IMG/VR virus record: IMGVR_UViG_3300017971_000272
Location: 9,817 to 73,816 of that record
Strand: one strand, 5' to 3'
Source of the DNA: a virus
DNA length: 64,000 nucleotides
In this document: positions 8,324-28,461 of the stretch, piece by piece
Numbering within the stretch: position 1 is the stretch's first letter
How the letters are laid out: each line of letters opens with the position of its first letter
Program-made: the position numbers and the translations under genes
The notes under the pieces: model-generated
What the model was told of the DNA's origin: nothing
Databases searched by the model: none
Seen by the model: the letters and a program-made list of their open reading frames with translations, nothing else

Positions 8324-10137
8324 TATTGCCTCACTGTTCTATAGGATTGCATAACACCTGCAAGTTCAGTAGCTGATACAGTGAATTCCTCTATTACATC
8401 ATTATCAGTTCCTACACTTGCAGGATTAGAATATATTCTAATCCTTGCTGAAGTCACTACTTCATTACTATATACTATTTGATCAATAGACATGTTTTCA
8501 TATAAAGATACTACAGTTGGAACCATTGTAGTATTAACTATATTACTATCATAAAACACAGATAAATAATTAGGTTGATATCCATCTTTATCTATAATCA
8601 CAGAATAAGAAGGAACTTGATAGGGAAAAGTATAATCAAATGGAGAATTAACAGTTTTCCATCCCGTACCATCTCCAGGATTAAATTGTATCTGAGGTAA
8701 ATGATTTCCCCTTCTATCCATCACATTAAAAGTAACTTGATGAGCTGAAACAGTCACTGTTAAACTATCTTCGCTTGTAGCTCCTTCATTATCTTCAACC
8801 TGTAATCTCGTAGTGATAACACCAATATTACTATACAAATAAGTAAATGCCTGTACAGCCTCTAATAATGTAGCATATCCATTAATAGGAATCTCAGTCC
8901 ATATATCTACTTCGCCATCAACCTTATATCTTGCTACATCAACTGTACCATCAGGATCATTAAAAGAAGCATCTGAAAATGGAGATATTGTGCCATGATC
9001 AAGTGTATTTTTATTACTGCCAGCATCCACTATAGGACTTAAATTAGATGTGTAAAGTATCTGTATTTCATCCAGTTGAATAGCTTGATTCCCATTACTA
9101 ATAAAGAAAGTTTTAACCCATATATCTCCTACTGGAAAAAGATCTATGTTGATGTTTACTGTATTCTCATTGTTATAATTAGCTCCAGCAGAAACCCAAG
9201 CAGATCCATCAAAATACAACCAATCAGATCCATTGGAAGATAGTTGAAATCCTAAACTCCCTTCCAATACACCTGTTGTAACAGTGAAGCCATCCCATAC
9301 ATTAACTGTTCCTGATTCACCTGTAGTTTTATAAATGCTTGGCTCATCGTCACTGTAAAAGCTTTGTTCTGTTCCATTTCCAGCATTATATAAGTGAGCT
9401 ATTTCATTTGTTGTCAATACTCTATCATATATAACTAATTCATCTATTTCTCCTCCCCAATGATTAGTTACATTATTTCTTGATCCAATAGAGCACGAAT
9501 TAGAAACTAACATACTTTGTGTTAAATTATCATTATCAACAGTAACATCTCTCACAGTACCATCTACTGTAAAAACAATACCACTTGCTAATGAACTCCC
9601 ATCATAAGTAACAACAGCATGATGCCAATTACCATCTCTAAATGTTTCATTTGTTGTTACAGATACAACATTGCCGGATAACCCACCTGCTAAATATAAT
9701 CGCAATGCTGCACTTTTCATATCAAAGATCCATCCTTGAGCAGCTCCTATAGTATTAACTTTACTAATCAAAGTCATAGGTGTTTGTATTGTAGAGGATT
9801 TAAACCATATAGATATAGAAAAGGACTGATCTCTTTCAAAATTACAAATATTACCAAGATCAACTCTTTCATTTTGTGCTCTTACAAAAGATAAACAATT
9901 GTTTAATTTACCAGTAATCCAATTGGAATCATCCATGTTTTGAGTTGTTCCATTCCTATTATTACCTGAATCATCTGGAACAGTACTGCCAGAACTCTCA
10001 TTAAAATGATAACGAGCATAGCAGTTTCTAAGATCCTCTATCAGGGAGGCAAATCCACCAGAAACTTCTATTTGATTATTGTCAAAATTATAGTTACCTG
10101 GAACATCAAAAGGTATCGAAAAAACCGCCATGCTCAA
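8323..10137 (-). CDS. LamG/concanavalin-like and PKD-like domain virion protein
   Basis: ARYHFNESSG...DDSGNNRNGT, FSISIWFK, DGNWHHAVVTYDG, GEIDELVIYDRVLT (LamG); PIVDAG...DPDG...LQVEDNEGATSEDSLTVTV (PKD-like). Confidence 0.85.
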   Translation of the reverse strand: MSMAVFSIPFDVPGNYNFDNNQIEVSGGFASLIEDLRNCYARYHFNESSGSTVPDDSGNNRNGTTQNMDDSNWITGKLNNCLSFVRAQNERVDLGNICNFERDQSFSISIWFKSSTIQTPMTLISKVNTIGAAQGWIFDMKSAALRLYLAGGLSGNVVSVTTNETFRDGNWHHAVVTYDGSSLASGIVFTVDGTVRDVTVDNDNLTQSMLVSNSCSIGSRNNVTNHWGGEIDELVIYDRVLTTNEIAHLYNAGNGTEQSFYSDDEPSIYKTTGESGTVNVWDGFTVTTGVLEGSLGFQLSSNGSDWLYFDGSAWVSAGANYNNENTVNINIDLFPVGDIWVKTFFISNGNQAIQLDEIQILYTSNLSPIVDAGSNKNTLDHGTISPFSDASFNDPDGTVDVARYKVDGEVDIWTEIPINGYATLLEAVQAFTYLYSNIGVITTRLQVEDNEGATSEDSLTVTVSAHQVTFNVMDRRGNHLPQIQFNPGDGTGWKTVNSPFDYTFPYQVPSYSVIIDKDGYQPNYLSVFYDSNIVNTTMVPTVVSLYENMSIDQIVYSNEVVTSARIRIYSNPASVGTDNDVIEEFTVSATELAGVMQSYRTVRQ

Positions 10138-24643: not shown

Positions 24644-26986
24644 TCATACTAAACCTTTTGCTTTATTATATAGTTCTGGAAATGCTGATTTTAAAACATA
24701 TCTTCCATAACGATCTTTAACTACAGCGCCATTCTTAATCATCTTATCTAATGTGGGTTTAAATGTCTTATCTTTAATATTCCAAGATGCCTTTTTAATC
24801 TGATTTTCTGTGAGAGGTTTATTTGCTAATTCTATTTGTAATCTATTACTCTGTGCTTGTGCAAGAAACTTTTTATTATTCATCTCAACTAATGTTAATG
24901 GTCTTCCATCCTGTTTTATCATTTGAGATGTGCTTATCTTATTTTGCTTCCATAATTTATATCTACCTGGACCAAGTATTTCAATCTGCTTTGATTTGGG
25001 TAAACTCTGTAACCATTTATCAGTTGTTTCAAATCGCTTGGTATCTAATTTAGTTTCTTTACCTTTTAACTGATCAAGCTTTCTCCCATACTTTCTCTCC
25101 AATCCAGCATCAGCAACTAATTGTTCATATGATTTAGTAATGGGAACTTTTATAGTACGACAATTATGAACTATACAATTCTCTGCAATATAAGTTTCAT
25201 CTTCATCAACAGCAAGATTATATACTTGAATTTCCTTAACTTTTTTCTCTTCAATTGATAATATCTTAGAAACTTTCCAACAAGAAGGAGGATCAATATG
25301 GATAAAAGATTTCTTAAAGATCTTATTACGAAAGAACATTTTGATAGAGGAAAATCTATCCGAGAAATAGCCAGAAACCTCTCTGTTTCTCCTGATAAAA
25401 TCTACTATTATTGTAAAAAATTTGGAATCAAATACCGATCTCAAAGAGAAGCTTCGAGTATTGCTCTGACTAAAACAAGAGCCACAACTCCCCATCCAAG
25501 ACTTGGCAAAACTAAAGAAACTTGTTCCGTTATCGCATCCCACAGCAAAAGAATGTCTGAAAATAATCCTTCTCAAAGAAAACACATTAGAGAAAAAATG
25601 TCCAAATCGTTGAGTGAACATCTTAGAAATAATCCCACTAAATACGAAAATAAAATTATTGAATTTCTTGGAGATTATAGAAATTATATCTTTCAATATC
25701 CCATTGGCATATACATTGCTGATTTTGCCTTTCCAAAACATAAAATTATTCTGGAAATTGATGGGAAAAGTCATATGAATCGGAATCGAAAAAGACGTGA
25801 TATCATAAGAGACAGGAGCCTCATCGATCTCGAATGGATAATCATTAGGTATCTTGAGCCTAAAAAGGGTAGAATCTTTCATGCTAAAAGAATCTTTCGT
25901 ATACTGGAATACTTTATCCCCGACTTGAACATCTCCAAACGTCTTCCAGCCCCTAAAAAATGTGAGTATGGGGTGCTCATACGTTCCGCTCAATATCCTA
26001 CCGGAATCCGTGTTAAAAATCCTGATCATCTTGTTTCTTATGGTTTTTGACATAGTAGAATAGACATATTTAAATTGACCAGTATGCGTTAAAACTCTAT
26101 CTCCGACTTTAACATCTTCTATTGGTATTTCTCCTTTACTGGTCAATATTTTAGTACCCTTAACCAATGCATTCCAATGGAATGGAGGACCTCCTGCTAC
26201 TGGATATGGAATATTATGTCCTATAGGTTGATAATCTAATGTGTATTTACGGCCATGAAGACCTTGACATAATCTTGTTGTGCGTCTATCAAGAATAGCT
26301 ACTATCTCCCATCCATTAAATATATCTTGATGTTCTTTGTATACTTGATCATTAGCTTGATTACTAACAGTCAATACAGATGTTCTAACAAGGGCTTCAG
26401 CTTGTCTTCTTGGGATATCTAATATACCTGGACGTCCTTTAGTTCCTTTGATTCTTGTAATGAGTTCTCCAACTGTTTCCCTCTGAATAATTCCTATTTG
26501 CATTTCTCTTGTTGCTTCTTGGAACATTCTCTTAACTGCATCACTGGTATTATCTTTTTGCTTTTTCCACCAATCCTTTACAAGTCCACCATCTATCAGA
26601 GTATTGTTAACAACAGAGTTCAATAAATTTTTAGATATCTTAACTGAAAATACATCCATCACAGTTGTATTTAATAAAGCTGCTGTGCGTTGATAATTAT
26701 AATCAGCTATATCTTTTAAAGAGCTATTAGTTTCTTTACTGATTTCTTTATAGTGTTCACTTAATATTCTATCAACTTCTATCTGTAGTTTTTCAAGTCG
26801 TTGTTTTTTATACCGTGATGCTTTTGGAGCTGTTGGATCTATCCTTGCTGTTTTATCTATGATATCTTTTTCAGCATCTTTTAATAGATCATAAACCTTT
26901 CTATTTAAATTAGCAGCAAGCCTTTCATTGATTATATGTTTAATCAATAACTCATCAGCCAATGTGACATTTACATTTATACTCAT
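24644..26986 (-). CDS. MuF/SPP1 gp7-like minor head protein, intein-containing
   Basis: AEALVRTS, AILDRRTTRLCQGLHG, and a PPFHWN|CRT motif interrupted by the intein. Confidence 0.9.
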   Translation of the reverse strand: MSINVNVTLADELLIKHIINERLAANLNRKVYDLLKDAEKDIIDKTARIDPTAPKASRYKKQRLEKLQIEVDRILSEHYKEISKETNSSLKDIADYNYQRTAALLNTTVMDVFSVKISKNLLNSVVNNTLIDGGLVKDWWKKQKDNTSDAVKRMFQEATREMQIGIIQRETVGELITRIKGTKGRPGILDIPRRQAEALVRTSVLTVSNQANDQVYKEHQDIFNGWEIVAILDRRTTRLCQGLHGRKYTLDYQPIGHNIPYPVAGGPPFHWNALVKGTKILTSKGEIPIEDVKVGDRVLTHTGQFKYVYSTMSKTIRNKMIRIFNTDSGRILSGTYEHPILTFFRGWKTFGDVQVGDKVFQYTKDSFSMKDSTLFRLKIPNDYPFEIDEAPVSYDITSFSIPIHMTFPINFQNNFMFWKGKISNVYANGILKDIISIISKKFNNFIFVFSGIISKMFTQRFGHFFSNVFSLRRIIFRHSFAVGCDNGTSFFSFAKSWMGSCGSCFSQSNTRSFSLRSVFDSKFFTIIVDFIRRNREVSGYFSDRFSSIKMFFRNKIFKKSFIHIDPPSCWKVSKILSIEEKKVKEIQVYNLAVDEDETYIAENCIVHNCRTIKVPITKSYEQLVADAGLERKYGRKLDQLKGKETKLDTKRFETTDKWLQSLPKSKQIEILGPGRYKLWKQNKISTSQMIKQDGRPLTLVEMNNKKFLAQAQSNRLQIELANKPLTENQIKKASWNIKDKTFKPTLDKMIKNGAVVKDRYGRYVLKSAFPELYNKAKGLV
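25163..26170 (-). mobile_element. Intein (336 aa, Ala1, ends His-Asn, Cys+1)
   Basis: Block A ALVKGTKILT, N2 IEDVKVGDRVLT, block B GTYEHPIL, block F VYNLAV..ETYIA, block G IVHN/C; removal restores PPFHWNCR. Confidence 0.92.
25298..26050 (+). CDS. HTH + Vsr/DUF559-like endonuclease encoded antisense inside the intein
   Basis: SD AAGGAGG at 25285-25291; N-terminal HTH (KSIREIARNLSVSPDKIYYYCKKFGI); PTKYE...FQYPIGIYIADF...ILEIDGKSH...DIIRDRSLIDLEWIIIR. Confidence 0.88.
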   Translation: MDKRFLKDLITKEHFDRGKSIREIARNLSVSPDKIYYYCKKFGIKYRSQREASSIALTKTRATTPHPRLGKTKETCSVIASHSKRMSENNPSQRKHIREKMSKSLSEHLRNNPTKYENKIIEFLGDYRNYIFQYPIGIYIADFAFPKHKIILEIDGKSHMNRNRKRRDIIRDRSLIDLEWIIIRYLEPKKGRIFHAKRIFRILEYFIPDLNISKRLPAPKKCEYGVLIRSAQYPTGIRVKNPDHLVSYGF

Positions 26987-28461
26987 TATTCTTCCTCATT
27001 AAGAATATCTTCAGGAACATCTTCCTCATCAGGCAATATAGTTTCTTCCTGTTCTTTAAATCTTGTATCAGCATCACTTTCTATCAGTTCTTTCTCTTCT
27101 TCAATTGTGCGGTTATCTGGAAGCACTTCACCTTCTTTAAGTGAATATAGGAAAGTATCTTGACTTATCTCACCTGCCTGTAATGTTTTTAATAATTCTG
27201 ATATCATTTGAGGACTCATAGACTTATCAATAAAATCAGAGTTCATTTCCACAGAGGCTTGTTGATCTTTTATCATTAACCAATTAGAACAATATTCAAG
27301 CACTTTTACCATTCCTTGGCTTATGCTCTGTGTGATATCTACTAATGTAGCTGTTTCTCCGCTTGTTCTTATTTTTAATGTCTCTGCTGCTTCTGCTGCT
27401 TTCTTTTGTTCTTCAAGGAGCCTTGCTCCTAATACAGCCATTTTCCTTTCCATGTTTTCCATCTCATTGGAGATGGCTCCCATACCTTGACCTGTAAACT
27501 CGAGCATTCCTACCTTAGCATTACTATCTTTATTTCTAATTGATTTTCCAGGACCAACAGCTATCTTTTTACCTTCTTGGAAACCTAAAAGATAAATAGT
27601 AGGTAATGCACAGTAATGAAGACCACTTCTATAATCTACATCAGTTCGCCAGTGAGCTATATTTAGAAACATAAGATCAAGCAATGGAGGCTTATCAACA
27701 TTCATTGTATTAGCATTAGGACCAAAACAAACAAATGGGATATAATTTAGTCTTTTTCCATTAATATTAGGATATGCTGTTAACTTTCCAGGAACAACAT
27801 CTACACGAACCCAAGCCTCTTCACTACTGCCTGTTTTGCTATCTAAAACAATTAGTTTCTTTTCCCATAGTTGTGTTACAAGATATCCATGTTCATCAAG
27901 ATATAACTGTCTTACCCTCTCAACAGGTTCAAAACTATAAAGAGCATCATTACTTGGAATATATGCTGTTTCTTTTAATGTTAAATAGGTAAGTTTAAGT
28001 TGACCATCAATTATACTTGTATTCCAATTTAATATCGATAAAGCATCATATTCAGAAAGAAATGGCATTTTAGTTTCTTGTGAATAATCACAATATATAC
28101 CATATCTACCATAAGCTAAAAGATTATATACAGTGTTTCTTATAACTGCATCAAATGTAAGTCCTTGCTGTGTAGACTGTTGGAGAAAAGGATTCATGCG
28201 TTCAGATACTTCTATAATCGGAGGCTTCCTCATTATAGCACCAGTAAAACCAGATACTGTTCTTGAAGTAGCACCATAAAAAGAACCTCTACTGATATAA
28301 GTGAAATATTCTTCATCTTTTTGATCATCTAATTTAGGAACAAACCTTGTCCCCTTACTTTTCATTACTCGTTCGCCATCTATGACATATGTCATATCTA
28401 ACCAATCATCTTCTCTATCTTGATACTCATTATGGACATTATCCATAGTTAAATTTTCCAT
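26986..28461 (-). CDS. Portal protein (DUF4055-like)
   Basis: RGSFYGATSRTVSGFTG, LNYIPFV, KPPLLDL..LNIAHWR..DYR.GLH..ALPT. Confidence 0.88.
   Translation of the reverse strand: MENLTMDNVHNEYQDREDDWLDMTYVIDGERVMKSKGTRFVPKLDDQKDEEYFTYISRGSFYGATSRTVSGFTGAIMRKPPIIEVSERMNPFLQQSTQQGLTFDAVIRNTVYNLLAYGRYGIYCDYSQETKMPFLSEYDALSILNWNTSIIDGQLKLTYLTLKETAYIPSNDALYSFEPVERVRQLYLDEHGYLVTQLWEKKLIVLDSKTGSSEEAWVRVDVVPGKLTAYPNINGKRLNYIPFVCFGPNANTMNVDKPPLLDLMFLNIAHWRTDVDYRSGLHYCALPTIYLLGFQEGKKIAVGPGKSIRNKDSNAKVGMLEFTGQGMGAISNEMENMERKMAVLGARLLEEQKKAAEAAETLKIRTSGETATLVDITQSISQGMVKVLEYCSNWLMIKDQQASVEMNSDFIDKSMSPQMISELLKTLQAGEISQDTFLYSLKEGEVLPDNRTIEEEKELIESDADTRFKEQEETILPDEEDVPEDILNEEE

Follow-up and report, generated by a model that had tools for sequence, protein, structure and literature searches.

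The MuF-type head-morphogenesis gene of a marine phage (IMG/VR record IMGVR_UViG_3300017971_000272) carries a contiguous intein in which the endonuclease slot is filled by a separate, complete nuclease gene on the opposite strand. The locus was analysed within a stretch of 64,000 nucleotides (positions 9,817 to 73,816 of the record, hereafter the window), and here we demonstrate its architecture, the nuclease family and fold, the avoidance of stop-mirroring codons in the nuclease gene, the frame-wise selection on both proteins and the recurrence of the arrangement in many phages. We regard it as likely that the MuF intein and an antisense homing nuclease at its endonuclease slot together form a composite selfish element, for which we infer nuclease expression, DNA cleavage and protein splicing. 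The architecture had been read from the sequence in a first-pass annotation that knew of no description of it. Frame-specific selection, recurrence and relatives with a relaxed constraint now bear it out, and antisense VSR-like endonucleases in MuF inteins turned out to have been described already (10.1101/2025.01.02.630785).

An intein and a nuclease gene on opposite strands

A Pfam search of the MuF open reading frame (ORF) detected a Hint domain (PF13403) above the cut-off (Hint_2, 35.1 bits; cut-off 28.4). In the precursor, the intein extends from Ala273 (26168..26170) to Asn608 (25163..25165) and is followed by Cys609 as residue +1. The 138-aa mini Hint domain 2lwy could be aligned (E 4.6e-10) in two halves, one with residues 1-88 and the other with residues 302-336 of the insert. 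Vibrio phage MAR10 encodes an intein-less MuF homologue in which the conserved host motif is contiguous (PPLHWN/CRS, the slash marking the insertion site), whereas in the window it is interrupted in frame by the insert (PPFHWN/336 residues/CRT). A block B of the TxxH type (TYEH), a C-terminal VHN and the Cys at +1 are present, which upholds the earlier reading of a MuF intein with N- and C-terminal splicing blocks; its residue 1 is Ala.

The middle of the intein had been described as rich in Phe, Ser and Ile and devoid of LAGLIDADG and HNH motifs. Indeed, the linker frame (195 aa, 25286..25870) returned zero Pfam matches even at E ≤ 10. Phe, Ser and Ile make up 17%, 14% and 12% of it, as compared to 1.8%, 4.5% and 7.9% of the exteins, and across loci the linker region shows the lowest identity of all parts (0.17-0.21). 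Judged by its sequence, the linker is without a family of its own, and its sole requirement is to stay free of stop codons.

On the opposite strand, a complete gene for a 250-aa protein with a Shine-Dalgarno (SD) sequence could be read directly, as had been proposed. Its ATG is read as His on the sense strand, its TGA as Ser and its SD sequence as Pro-Pro-Ser, and two Vibrio phage loci described below (L001 and L002) carry AGGAG and GGAGG at the equivalent SD position. The protein matches DUF559 with 41.9 bits (Pfam cut-off 20.6) and was modelled by AlphaFold2 with a pLDDT of 82. Since the model has two domains, a Foldseek search with the whole model gave only E > 0.01, and the matches were resolved by domain-wise comparison with VIA-align. 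The core resembled the DUF559 structure 3hrl (Z 9.5), the catalytic domain of I-Bth0305I (3r3p, Z 8.8) and Vsr (1vsr, Z 8.5), while residues 1-45 resembled the helix-turn-helix (HTH) domains of LsrR, KorB and DeoR (Z 5-6.3). A profile of the nuclease and its relatives retrieved 3hrl with an E value of 8e-16 and I-Bth0305I (3r3p) with 0.02. In an alignment of 20 sequences, D142 and E153 are invariant, conservation of D155, H159 and D168 is 90% or more, and the core aligns with the IEV(N/D)G of 3r3p. The protein has the catalytic Glu/Asp/His/Asp core of EDxHD-type enzymes, with an N-terminal DNA binder followed by a C-terminal nuclease. The HTH and the Vsr/DUF559-like core of the first-pass annotation were thus both recovered. 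A basic linker lies between them; its label as NUMOD3-like was not confirmed, as Pfam returned none of the NUMOD families, including NUMOD3, for the 250-aa protein.

Upstream of the nuclease start, a CAATTGA motif is conserved (25259-25275 in the window; ~30-45 nt before the ATG in L001 and L002). In the Vibrio phages it reads TACAATTGA, and in the window TGATAATAT comes after it. The latter was seen by eye as an extended -10-like sequence ~22 nt upstream of the ATG and was given no weight. On the sense strand, the CAATTGA motif corresponds to Ser-Ile-(Val/Glu)-Glu codons that are conserved in the C-lobe of the intein, and it could also be a -10-like promoter element.

Codon avoidance and selection on the two frames

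As first noted, the nuclease and intein frames are in exact codon register, so that the intein frame would be stopped only by TTA, CTA and TCA codons of the nuclease gene. Its Leu and Ser codons, previously counted as ~17 and ~19, number exactly 17 and 19, and TTA, CTA and TCA each occur zero times. These codons had also been called common elsewhere in the genome; in the other ORFs of the window TTA and CTA together account for 56% of the Leu codons and TCA for 25% of the Ser codons (P = 4.3e-9). Five other contiguous antisense rows (from L001, L002, L003 and L005) gave P values from 1e-7 to 4e-10, with L001 and L003 being near-identical. The Lys, Glu, Asn, Asp and Phe codons of the nuclease gene are as AT-rich as those of the genome, and the gene is therefore not a foreign GC-rich gene.

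Nucleases that are free of the constraint behave differently. Each of the 16 free-standing relatives carries forbidden codons (3-26 per gene), as does each of the seven nuclease domains that are encoded in frame within inteins (3-10 per domain). Three relatives with a broken MuF frame (L006, L040 and L042) contain 5-7 forbidden codons; their intein frame is interrupted by ~5 to 11 stops, and they can be taken to act as a natural relaxed control for the codon constraint. A filter on arrival was considered as the cause of the avoidance and found to be insufficient. None of the 16 free-standing relatives would pass such a filter and the other codons match the host genome, so that selection in place is needed.

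Other NNA codons are also depleted compared to the genome (ATA 6 of 30 versus 44%; GTA 0 of 5 versus 43%; CCA, ACA and GCA are low). Their mirror codons encode Tyr, Trp and Cys and are all a single step away from a stop, and the depletion could reflect strand bias or avoidance of near-stop codons.

Selection on each strand in homologues, a check suggested at first pass, was analyzed in codon alignments of the window with L001, L002 and L006. Over nuclease residues 1-205, the third position of the nuclease codons is least conserved (0.36 and 0.43), and amino-acid identity is 0.42-0.43 for the nuclease versus 0.24-0.28 for the intein frame. The pattern is reversed over residues 206-250, which lie over the N-lobe with block B: here position 1 of the nuclease codons is least conserved (0.37), and identity is 0.29 for the nuclease versus 0.45 for the intein frame. 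The proposed overlap of the nuclease 3' end with block B was confirmed by the position of TYEH (25973..25984). Between L001 and L003 ten codons differ, eight of them at nuclease third positions (binomial P ~0.003), and six of the differences change the amino acid in the intein frame but not in the nuclease. From this segment-wise pattern it follows that any given stretch of DNA works for one of the two proteins, the other frame just being kept open. The nuclease frame is under purifying selection over residues 1-205, and the intein frame is where the nuclease tail overlaps block B.

Related loci and genomic context

When antisense ORFs were sought in other inteins, as the first-pass annotation had advised, the same layout was found in 13 fetched loci. 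Three of these are annotated records of cultured Vibrio phages, L001 (MG592631), L002 (MG592630) and L003 (MG592457), in which tblastn placed the nuclease at ~31% identity, antisense inside an annotated 'hint domain protein'. The records annotate only a 'hint domain / coil containing protein' and leave the antisense nuclease ORF unannotated; the loci are situated among the head genes, close to the portal gene. The contiguous antisense loci L005, L038, L043, L044, L045 and L046, all with zero forbidden codons, came from scans of viral, metagenome and genome contigs. In every locus measured, the distance from the nuclease start to the intein C-end is 114-135 nt. One of these loci, L045 (JAAEOJ010000137.1), lies on a 124-kb contig of a metagenome-assembled genome labelled Mycoplasma sp. 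and contains the same arrangement of MuF, intein (Ser1) and antisense nuclease, which may point to a prophage or to an artefact of binning.

A word-indexed search of 5.8 billion predicted proteins, which is insensitive, returned one relative of the 250-aa protein and three for the intein region. A full HMMER scan with a profile of the junction and N-lobe yielded 171 cluster representatives at E ≤ 1e-30 (clusters at 50% identity). Representative sequences (153) were scanned with a profile of the sense-frame translation of the mirrored nuclease gene; 99 matched, 74 of them over the full length, and 14 end inside the mirrored gene (396-440 aa, one 729 aa). As this profile works at the protein level, its matches show homologous stop-free sense frames and not the intactness of antisense ORFs.

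In the three relatives with a broken MuF frame the nuclease ORF is open, over its full length in L006 and L040 and for 174 aa from the first ATG in L042. In all three a Met codon follows the last stop ~60 codons before the HN/C junction, and in two of them GGAG/GAGG stands 10-13 nt upstream. L006, L040 and L042 probably represent split inteins of natural origin, the halves of which are separated by an antisense endonuclease gene.

A further set (L007-L012, L020 and L028) consists of contiguous MuF inteins at the same site (HPx/CFIDPQ...VVHN/CRC) with the nuclease in frame. A 2025 preprint (10.1101/2025.01.02.630785) states that VSR-like endonucleases had been known with split inteins alone, to which its own data added the antisense ones, and therefore the in-frame form may be unreported. 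In a maximum-likelihood tree of the nuclease core, the intein-associated sequences (seven in-frame, six antisense and P0001) were separated from 16 free-standing ones with a support of 100/99, and the window grouped with the Vibrio-type antisense genes (92/88). This pattern fits a change of orientation within one nuclease lineage, in a tree of small sample size and unplaced root.

One AT-rich locus (L005:1996-4212) differs in that its intein starts with Cys1 and, although both frames are open, the nuclease core reads ECFGD instead of EIDG, an SD sequence is absent and the branch is very long. It may represent a decaying endonuclease gene in which protection of the sense frame persists.

The window is part of a single 73,816-bp contig of 32% GC, and an identical sequence is also present in metagenome runs from marine sediment and seawater. 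The locus lies in a 21,763-nt contig that is identical in two metagenome runs, with ~20x coverage and zero variants; both runs gave contigs only and are probably the source data, and hence not independent. Megablast of the locus against phage records gave zero matches. The ORF directly upstream of the MuF gene (26986..28461) occupies the portal-gene position of related phages, and in related Vibrio phages the neighbour of the corresponding gene is annotated as portal. Between 16 and 38 kb of the window all ORFs of at least 110 aa are on the - strand, with the nuclease ORF as sole exception.

Table 1. Coordinates of the MuF locus in the window, and of related loci on their own contigs
Feature	Coordinates	Strand	Basis
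MuF / gp7-type head-morphogenesis gene, 780-aa precursor	24644..26986	-	PF04233; phrog_241 (head morphogenesis) E 2e-72
N-extein, residues 1-272, last residues PPFHWN	26171..26986	-	alignment to intein-less MAR10 MuF
C-extein from Cys609 (CRT...) and stop codon	24644..25162	-	alignment to MAR10 MuF
Intein, 336 aa, Ala1...His-Asn, then Cys+1 (25160..25162)	25163..26170	-	Hint_2 match, 2lwy alignment, junction codons read
Intein N-terminal splicing lobe, ~residues 1-88; block A ALVKGT, block B TYEH (25973..25984)	25907..26170	-	2lwy alignment
'Mirror' linker, ~213 aa, at canonical endonuclease-insertion site	25268..25906	-	zero Pfam families; lowest cross-locus identity
Intein C-terminal splicing lobe, blocks F/G, ending ...VYNLAVDEDETYIAENCIVHN	25163..25267	-	2lwy alignment; kept in all related loci
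Antisense nuclease gene, 250 aa, codon-aligned with intein frame	25298..26050	+	DUF559 E 1e-10; AlphaFold2 pLDDT 82
Shine-Dalgarno sequence AAGGAGG, 6 nt before ATG; sense-strand reading Pro-Pro-Ser	25285..25291	+	sequence read directly
N-terminal helix-turn-helix DNA-binding domain, residues 1-45	25298..25432	+	VIA-align; weak Pfam HTH matches
Vsr/DUF559 (EDxHD-type) nuclease core, residues 112-209	25631..25924	+	structure and profile matches, conserved columns
Nuclease C-terminal tail, residues 206-250, over intein N-lobe	25913..26047	+	intein frame dominates selection here
Broken-frame relatives	L006:2530-4641, L040:2300-4135, L042:2300-4120		nuclease ORF open, both Hint lobes and exteins conserved
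In-frame loci	L007:1615-3900, L008:1516-3618, L009:1438-3651, L010:1414-3603		Zn-ribbon and Vsr-like (EDxHD-type) nuclease
In-frame loci, continued	L012:1975-5604, L020:838-4104, L028:1579-3816		Zn-ribbon and Vsr-like (EDxHD-type) nuclease

Proposed mechanism, alternatives and known systems

In the composite selfish element that we favor, the Hint-fold intein sits between the Asn and Cys of PPxHxN/CR, and its removal after translation would restore MuF. The loop between the splicing lobes, in which most inteins have their endonuclease as an in-frame domain, is the reverse complement of a complete gene with its own ATG, SD sequence and stop. Owing to the antisense placement of this gene, ribosomes on MuF do not see its start and stop signals, and the host gene stays contiguous as long as TTA, CTA and TCA are absent. 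The SD sequence and the selection on its frame suggest that the + strand gene is transcribed and translated independently, by which nuclease expression would be decoupled from that of the late head gene. From its family membership, the nuclease would be expected to act on co-infecting phages whose MuF allele lacks the intein and to cut this allele close to the insertion site, and recombinational repair would then copy the intein and the nuclease gene into the cut allele (homing). The MuF precursor would be translated through the mirror linker, after which the intein would splice. We infer splicing because the blocks are intact, only splicing restores the invariant motif and selection keeps the frame open.

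The route of splicing would be an unusual one. Residue 1 of the intein is Ala (GCA, 26168..26170) and not Cys, Ser or Thr. The class 3 signature is absent, with Ile instead of Trp at B:12, Asn instead of Cys at F:4 and Val instead of Thr at G:5. With A273, C609 and a block F lacking a nucleophile (VYNLAV), the intein resembles class 2 (KlbA-type) inteins in these features. Class 2 Ala1 inteins (KlbA) splice through direct attack of Cys+1. Given Ala at position 1 and no class 3 signature, the intein of the window would probably splice by such a direct, class-2-like attack. The likeness covers Ala1, Cys+1 and the missing Trp/Cys/Thr signature; the family of the window differs in that Ala1 alternates with Ser1 among close relatives.

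Several observations weigh against the composite selfish element. Ala1 makes the standard first step of class 1 splicing impossible, and splicing would thus rest on the class 2 analogy. The intein fold predicted from the single sequence reached a pLDDT of only 36 and lends no structural support to a packing of the lobes around the linker. A consensus scan found neither a sigma-70-like promoter just upstream of the + strand gene nor a terminator for it, and the sequencing runs listed as containing the stretch included no RNA run. Further, neither an intein-less allele nor a joint skipping the intein was seen in the two metagenome runs, which are contigs only and probably the source data.

The nuclease could be functional but domesticated, serving to cut competitor genomes, in marker exclusion or in DNA processing, without homing of the intein in the window. 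Purifying selection shows that it has a function but not which one, the persistence of the layout at ~30% identity across very different phages fits long vertical retention, and an empty allele was not seen in the source metagenome. However, when antisense loci are compared, similarity is higher for the intein lobes (0.40-0.61) than for the exteins (0.22-0.38), which would agree with a horizontal spread among divergent MuF genes. The characterised family member I-Bth0305I is a homing enzyme (PMC3239194), and only three phage records match the nuclease as compared to 65 Vibrio phage records that match the MuF N-extein. We consider domestication unlikely.

Another explanation is that the Ala1 intein does not splice fully, MuF remaining unspliced or only C-terminally cleaved, and that the frame is kept so that the C-terminal part can be translated. 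Ala1 together with the absent class 3 signature would be in line with this. Nevertheless, Ala1 is the norm of the family: it was found in 64 of the 72 cluster representatives with a recognisable junction, the other eight having Ser1 and none Cys1. As the class 3 signature is absent too, the representatives may make up a large family of class-2-like phage inteins, in which Ala1 and Ser1 alternate between close relatives. In addition, the TxxH of block B, the terminal His-Asn and Cys+1 are all intact in the window, and the insertion splits the invariant HxN/CR motif, which can be restored only by splicing. We regard incomplete splicing as quite unlikely.

It is very unlikely that the nuclease gene is a decaying, inactive relic which is open only because too little time has passed. 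A degenerate core on a very long branch does occur in the relative L005, but the window retains all conserved acidic and His residues, and the third-position pattern indicates ongoing purifying selection on the nuclease frame. The antisense ORF is not protected against stops by the host frame, yet all contiguous loci examined have kept it intact. In general, a codon-aligned antisense frame can at times be open, but a chance ORF or an assembly artefact is refuted by the Pfam, profile and fold matches, the codon avoidance (P ~4e-9), the conservation in independent phage genomes and the variant-free assembly (~20x, 21.8-kb contig).

Among the closest known systems are actinophage inteins. Gosselin, Arsenault & Gogarten (bioRxiv 10.1101/2025.01.02.630785) described antisense LAGLIDADG and VSR-like endonucleases in full actinophage inteins, with 'minor capsid, MuF-like ... 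VSR -1 ORF' as an entry of their Supplementary Table 1. These share with the window the MuF-like extein, the HxN/C site, a Vsr-like gene antisense in the -1 codon-aligned frame, an unstructured middle in the sense frame and a nuclease fold matching Vsr and I-Bth0305I. Gordonia phage Angelicage has the same site and layout (HEVIN/CFVADT...IARN/CRC), with a 285-aa antisense HTH and Vsr-like ORF. The window has the features of the antisense 'VSR -1 ORF' MuF inteins, but the actinophage inteins are listed as class 1 (Cys1) and come from GC-rich phages, whereas the window has Ala1 in a marine phage of 32% GC, and its nuclease is too distant from the actinophage ones for tblastn at E 1e-5. In AT-rich DNA a stop-free sense frame does not arise by chance, and recoding is therefore statistically visible in the window.

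The 'fractured genes' of Dassa et al. 2009 (PMC2677866) are split inteins with a free-standing Vsr-like or GIY-YIG gene between the halves. They resemble the window in nuclease family, phage setting and the invasion of an intein by a free-standing endonuclease gene. Their endonuclease is, however, on the same strand, the host gene is broken and trans-splicing is required, whereas the window has an antisense gene in a contiguous host ORF and is thus not a fractured gene. L006, L040 and L042 combine an antisense gene with a broken host frame.

I-Bth0305I, which cleaves DNA adjacent to the site of its own insertion, was described as the prototype of EDxHD homing endonucleases (Taylor et al., 2011; PMC3239194). 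Like the nuclease of the window, it has an N-terminal DNA binder and a C-terminal Vsr-like domain (3r3p; rmsd 2.8 over 90 residues), and its E-x-D-G...H...D core aligns with that of the window. In contrast, it is encoded on the sense strand in a group I intron of phage recA and shares only ~14% identity with the window nuclease.

An antisense or overlapping-frame LAGLIDADG endonuclease in the cyanobacterial DnaX intein is credited to Gorbalenya 1998, as cited in both preprints. According to the second of these (Phillips et al., bioRxiv 10.64898/2026.09.14.751524), the DnaX intein frame is weakly constrained while the endonuclease frame is under purifying selection. The DnaX intein thus resembles the window in having its endonuclease in a frame other than that of the intein and in frame-specific selection. 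It differs in nuclease family, in its cellular host gene and in the relation of the frames.

Taken together, the architecture is already known, and the window contributes an Ala1 member from an AT-rich marine phage for which the statistics are unusually clear, extending the published actinophage examples to marine phages. It is a clean and quantifiable case of two-strand coding, in which a free-standing gene nests in a host ORF without breaking it, and it shows that gene callers overlook such antisense nucleases. The cultured Vibrio phages that carry the layout offer practical experimental systems, with phages 1.266.O, 1.082.O and 1.265.O as cultured relatives and V. breoganii or V. cyclitrophicus as hosts, and the Ala1 family with its naturally broken variants may interest engineers of cysteine-free or split inteins. 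More tentatively, and with more doubt than confidence on our side, the window could belong to a large, mostly unannotated family of natural Ala1 MuF inteins of marine phages (at least 74 clusters), class-2-like and devoid of the class 3 signature, that splice around a structureless mirror peptide of ~200 aa, with one nuclease lineage existing in three interconvertible states at one site: in frame, antisense contiguous and antisense split. If true, these three states would be direct snapshots of endonuclease genes entering inteins, flipping their orientation and generating split inteins.

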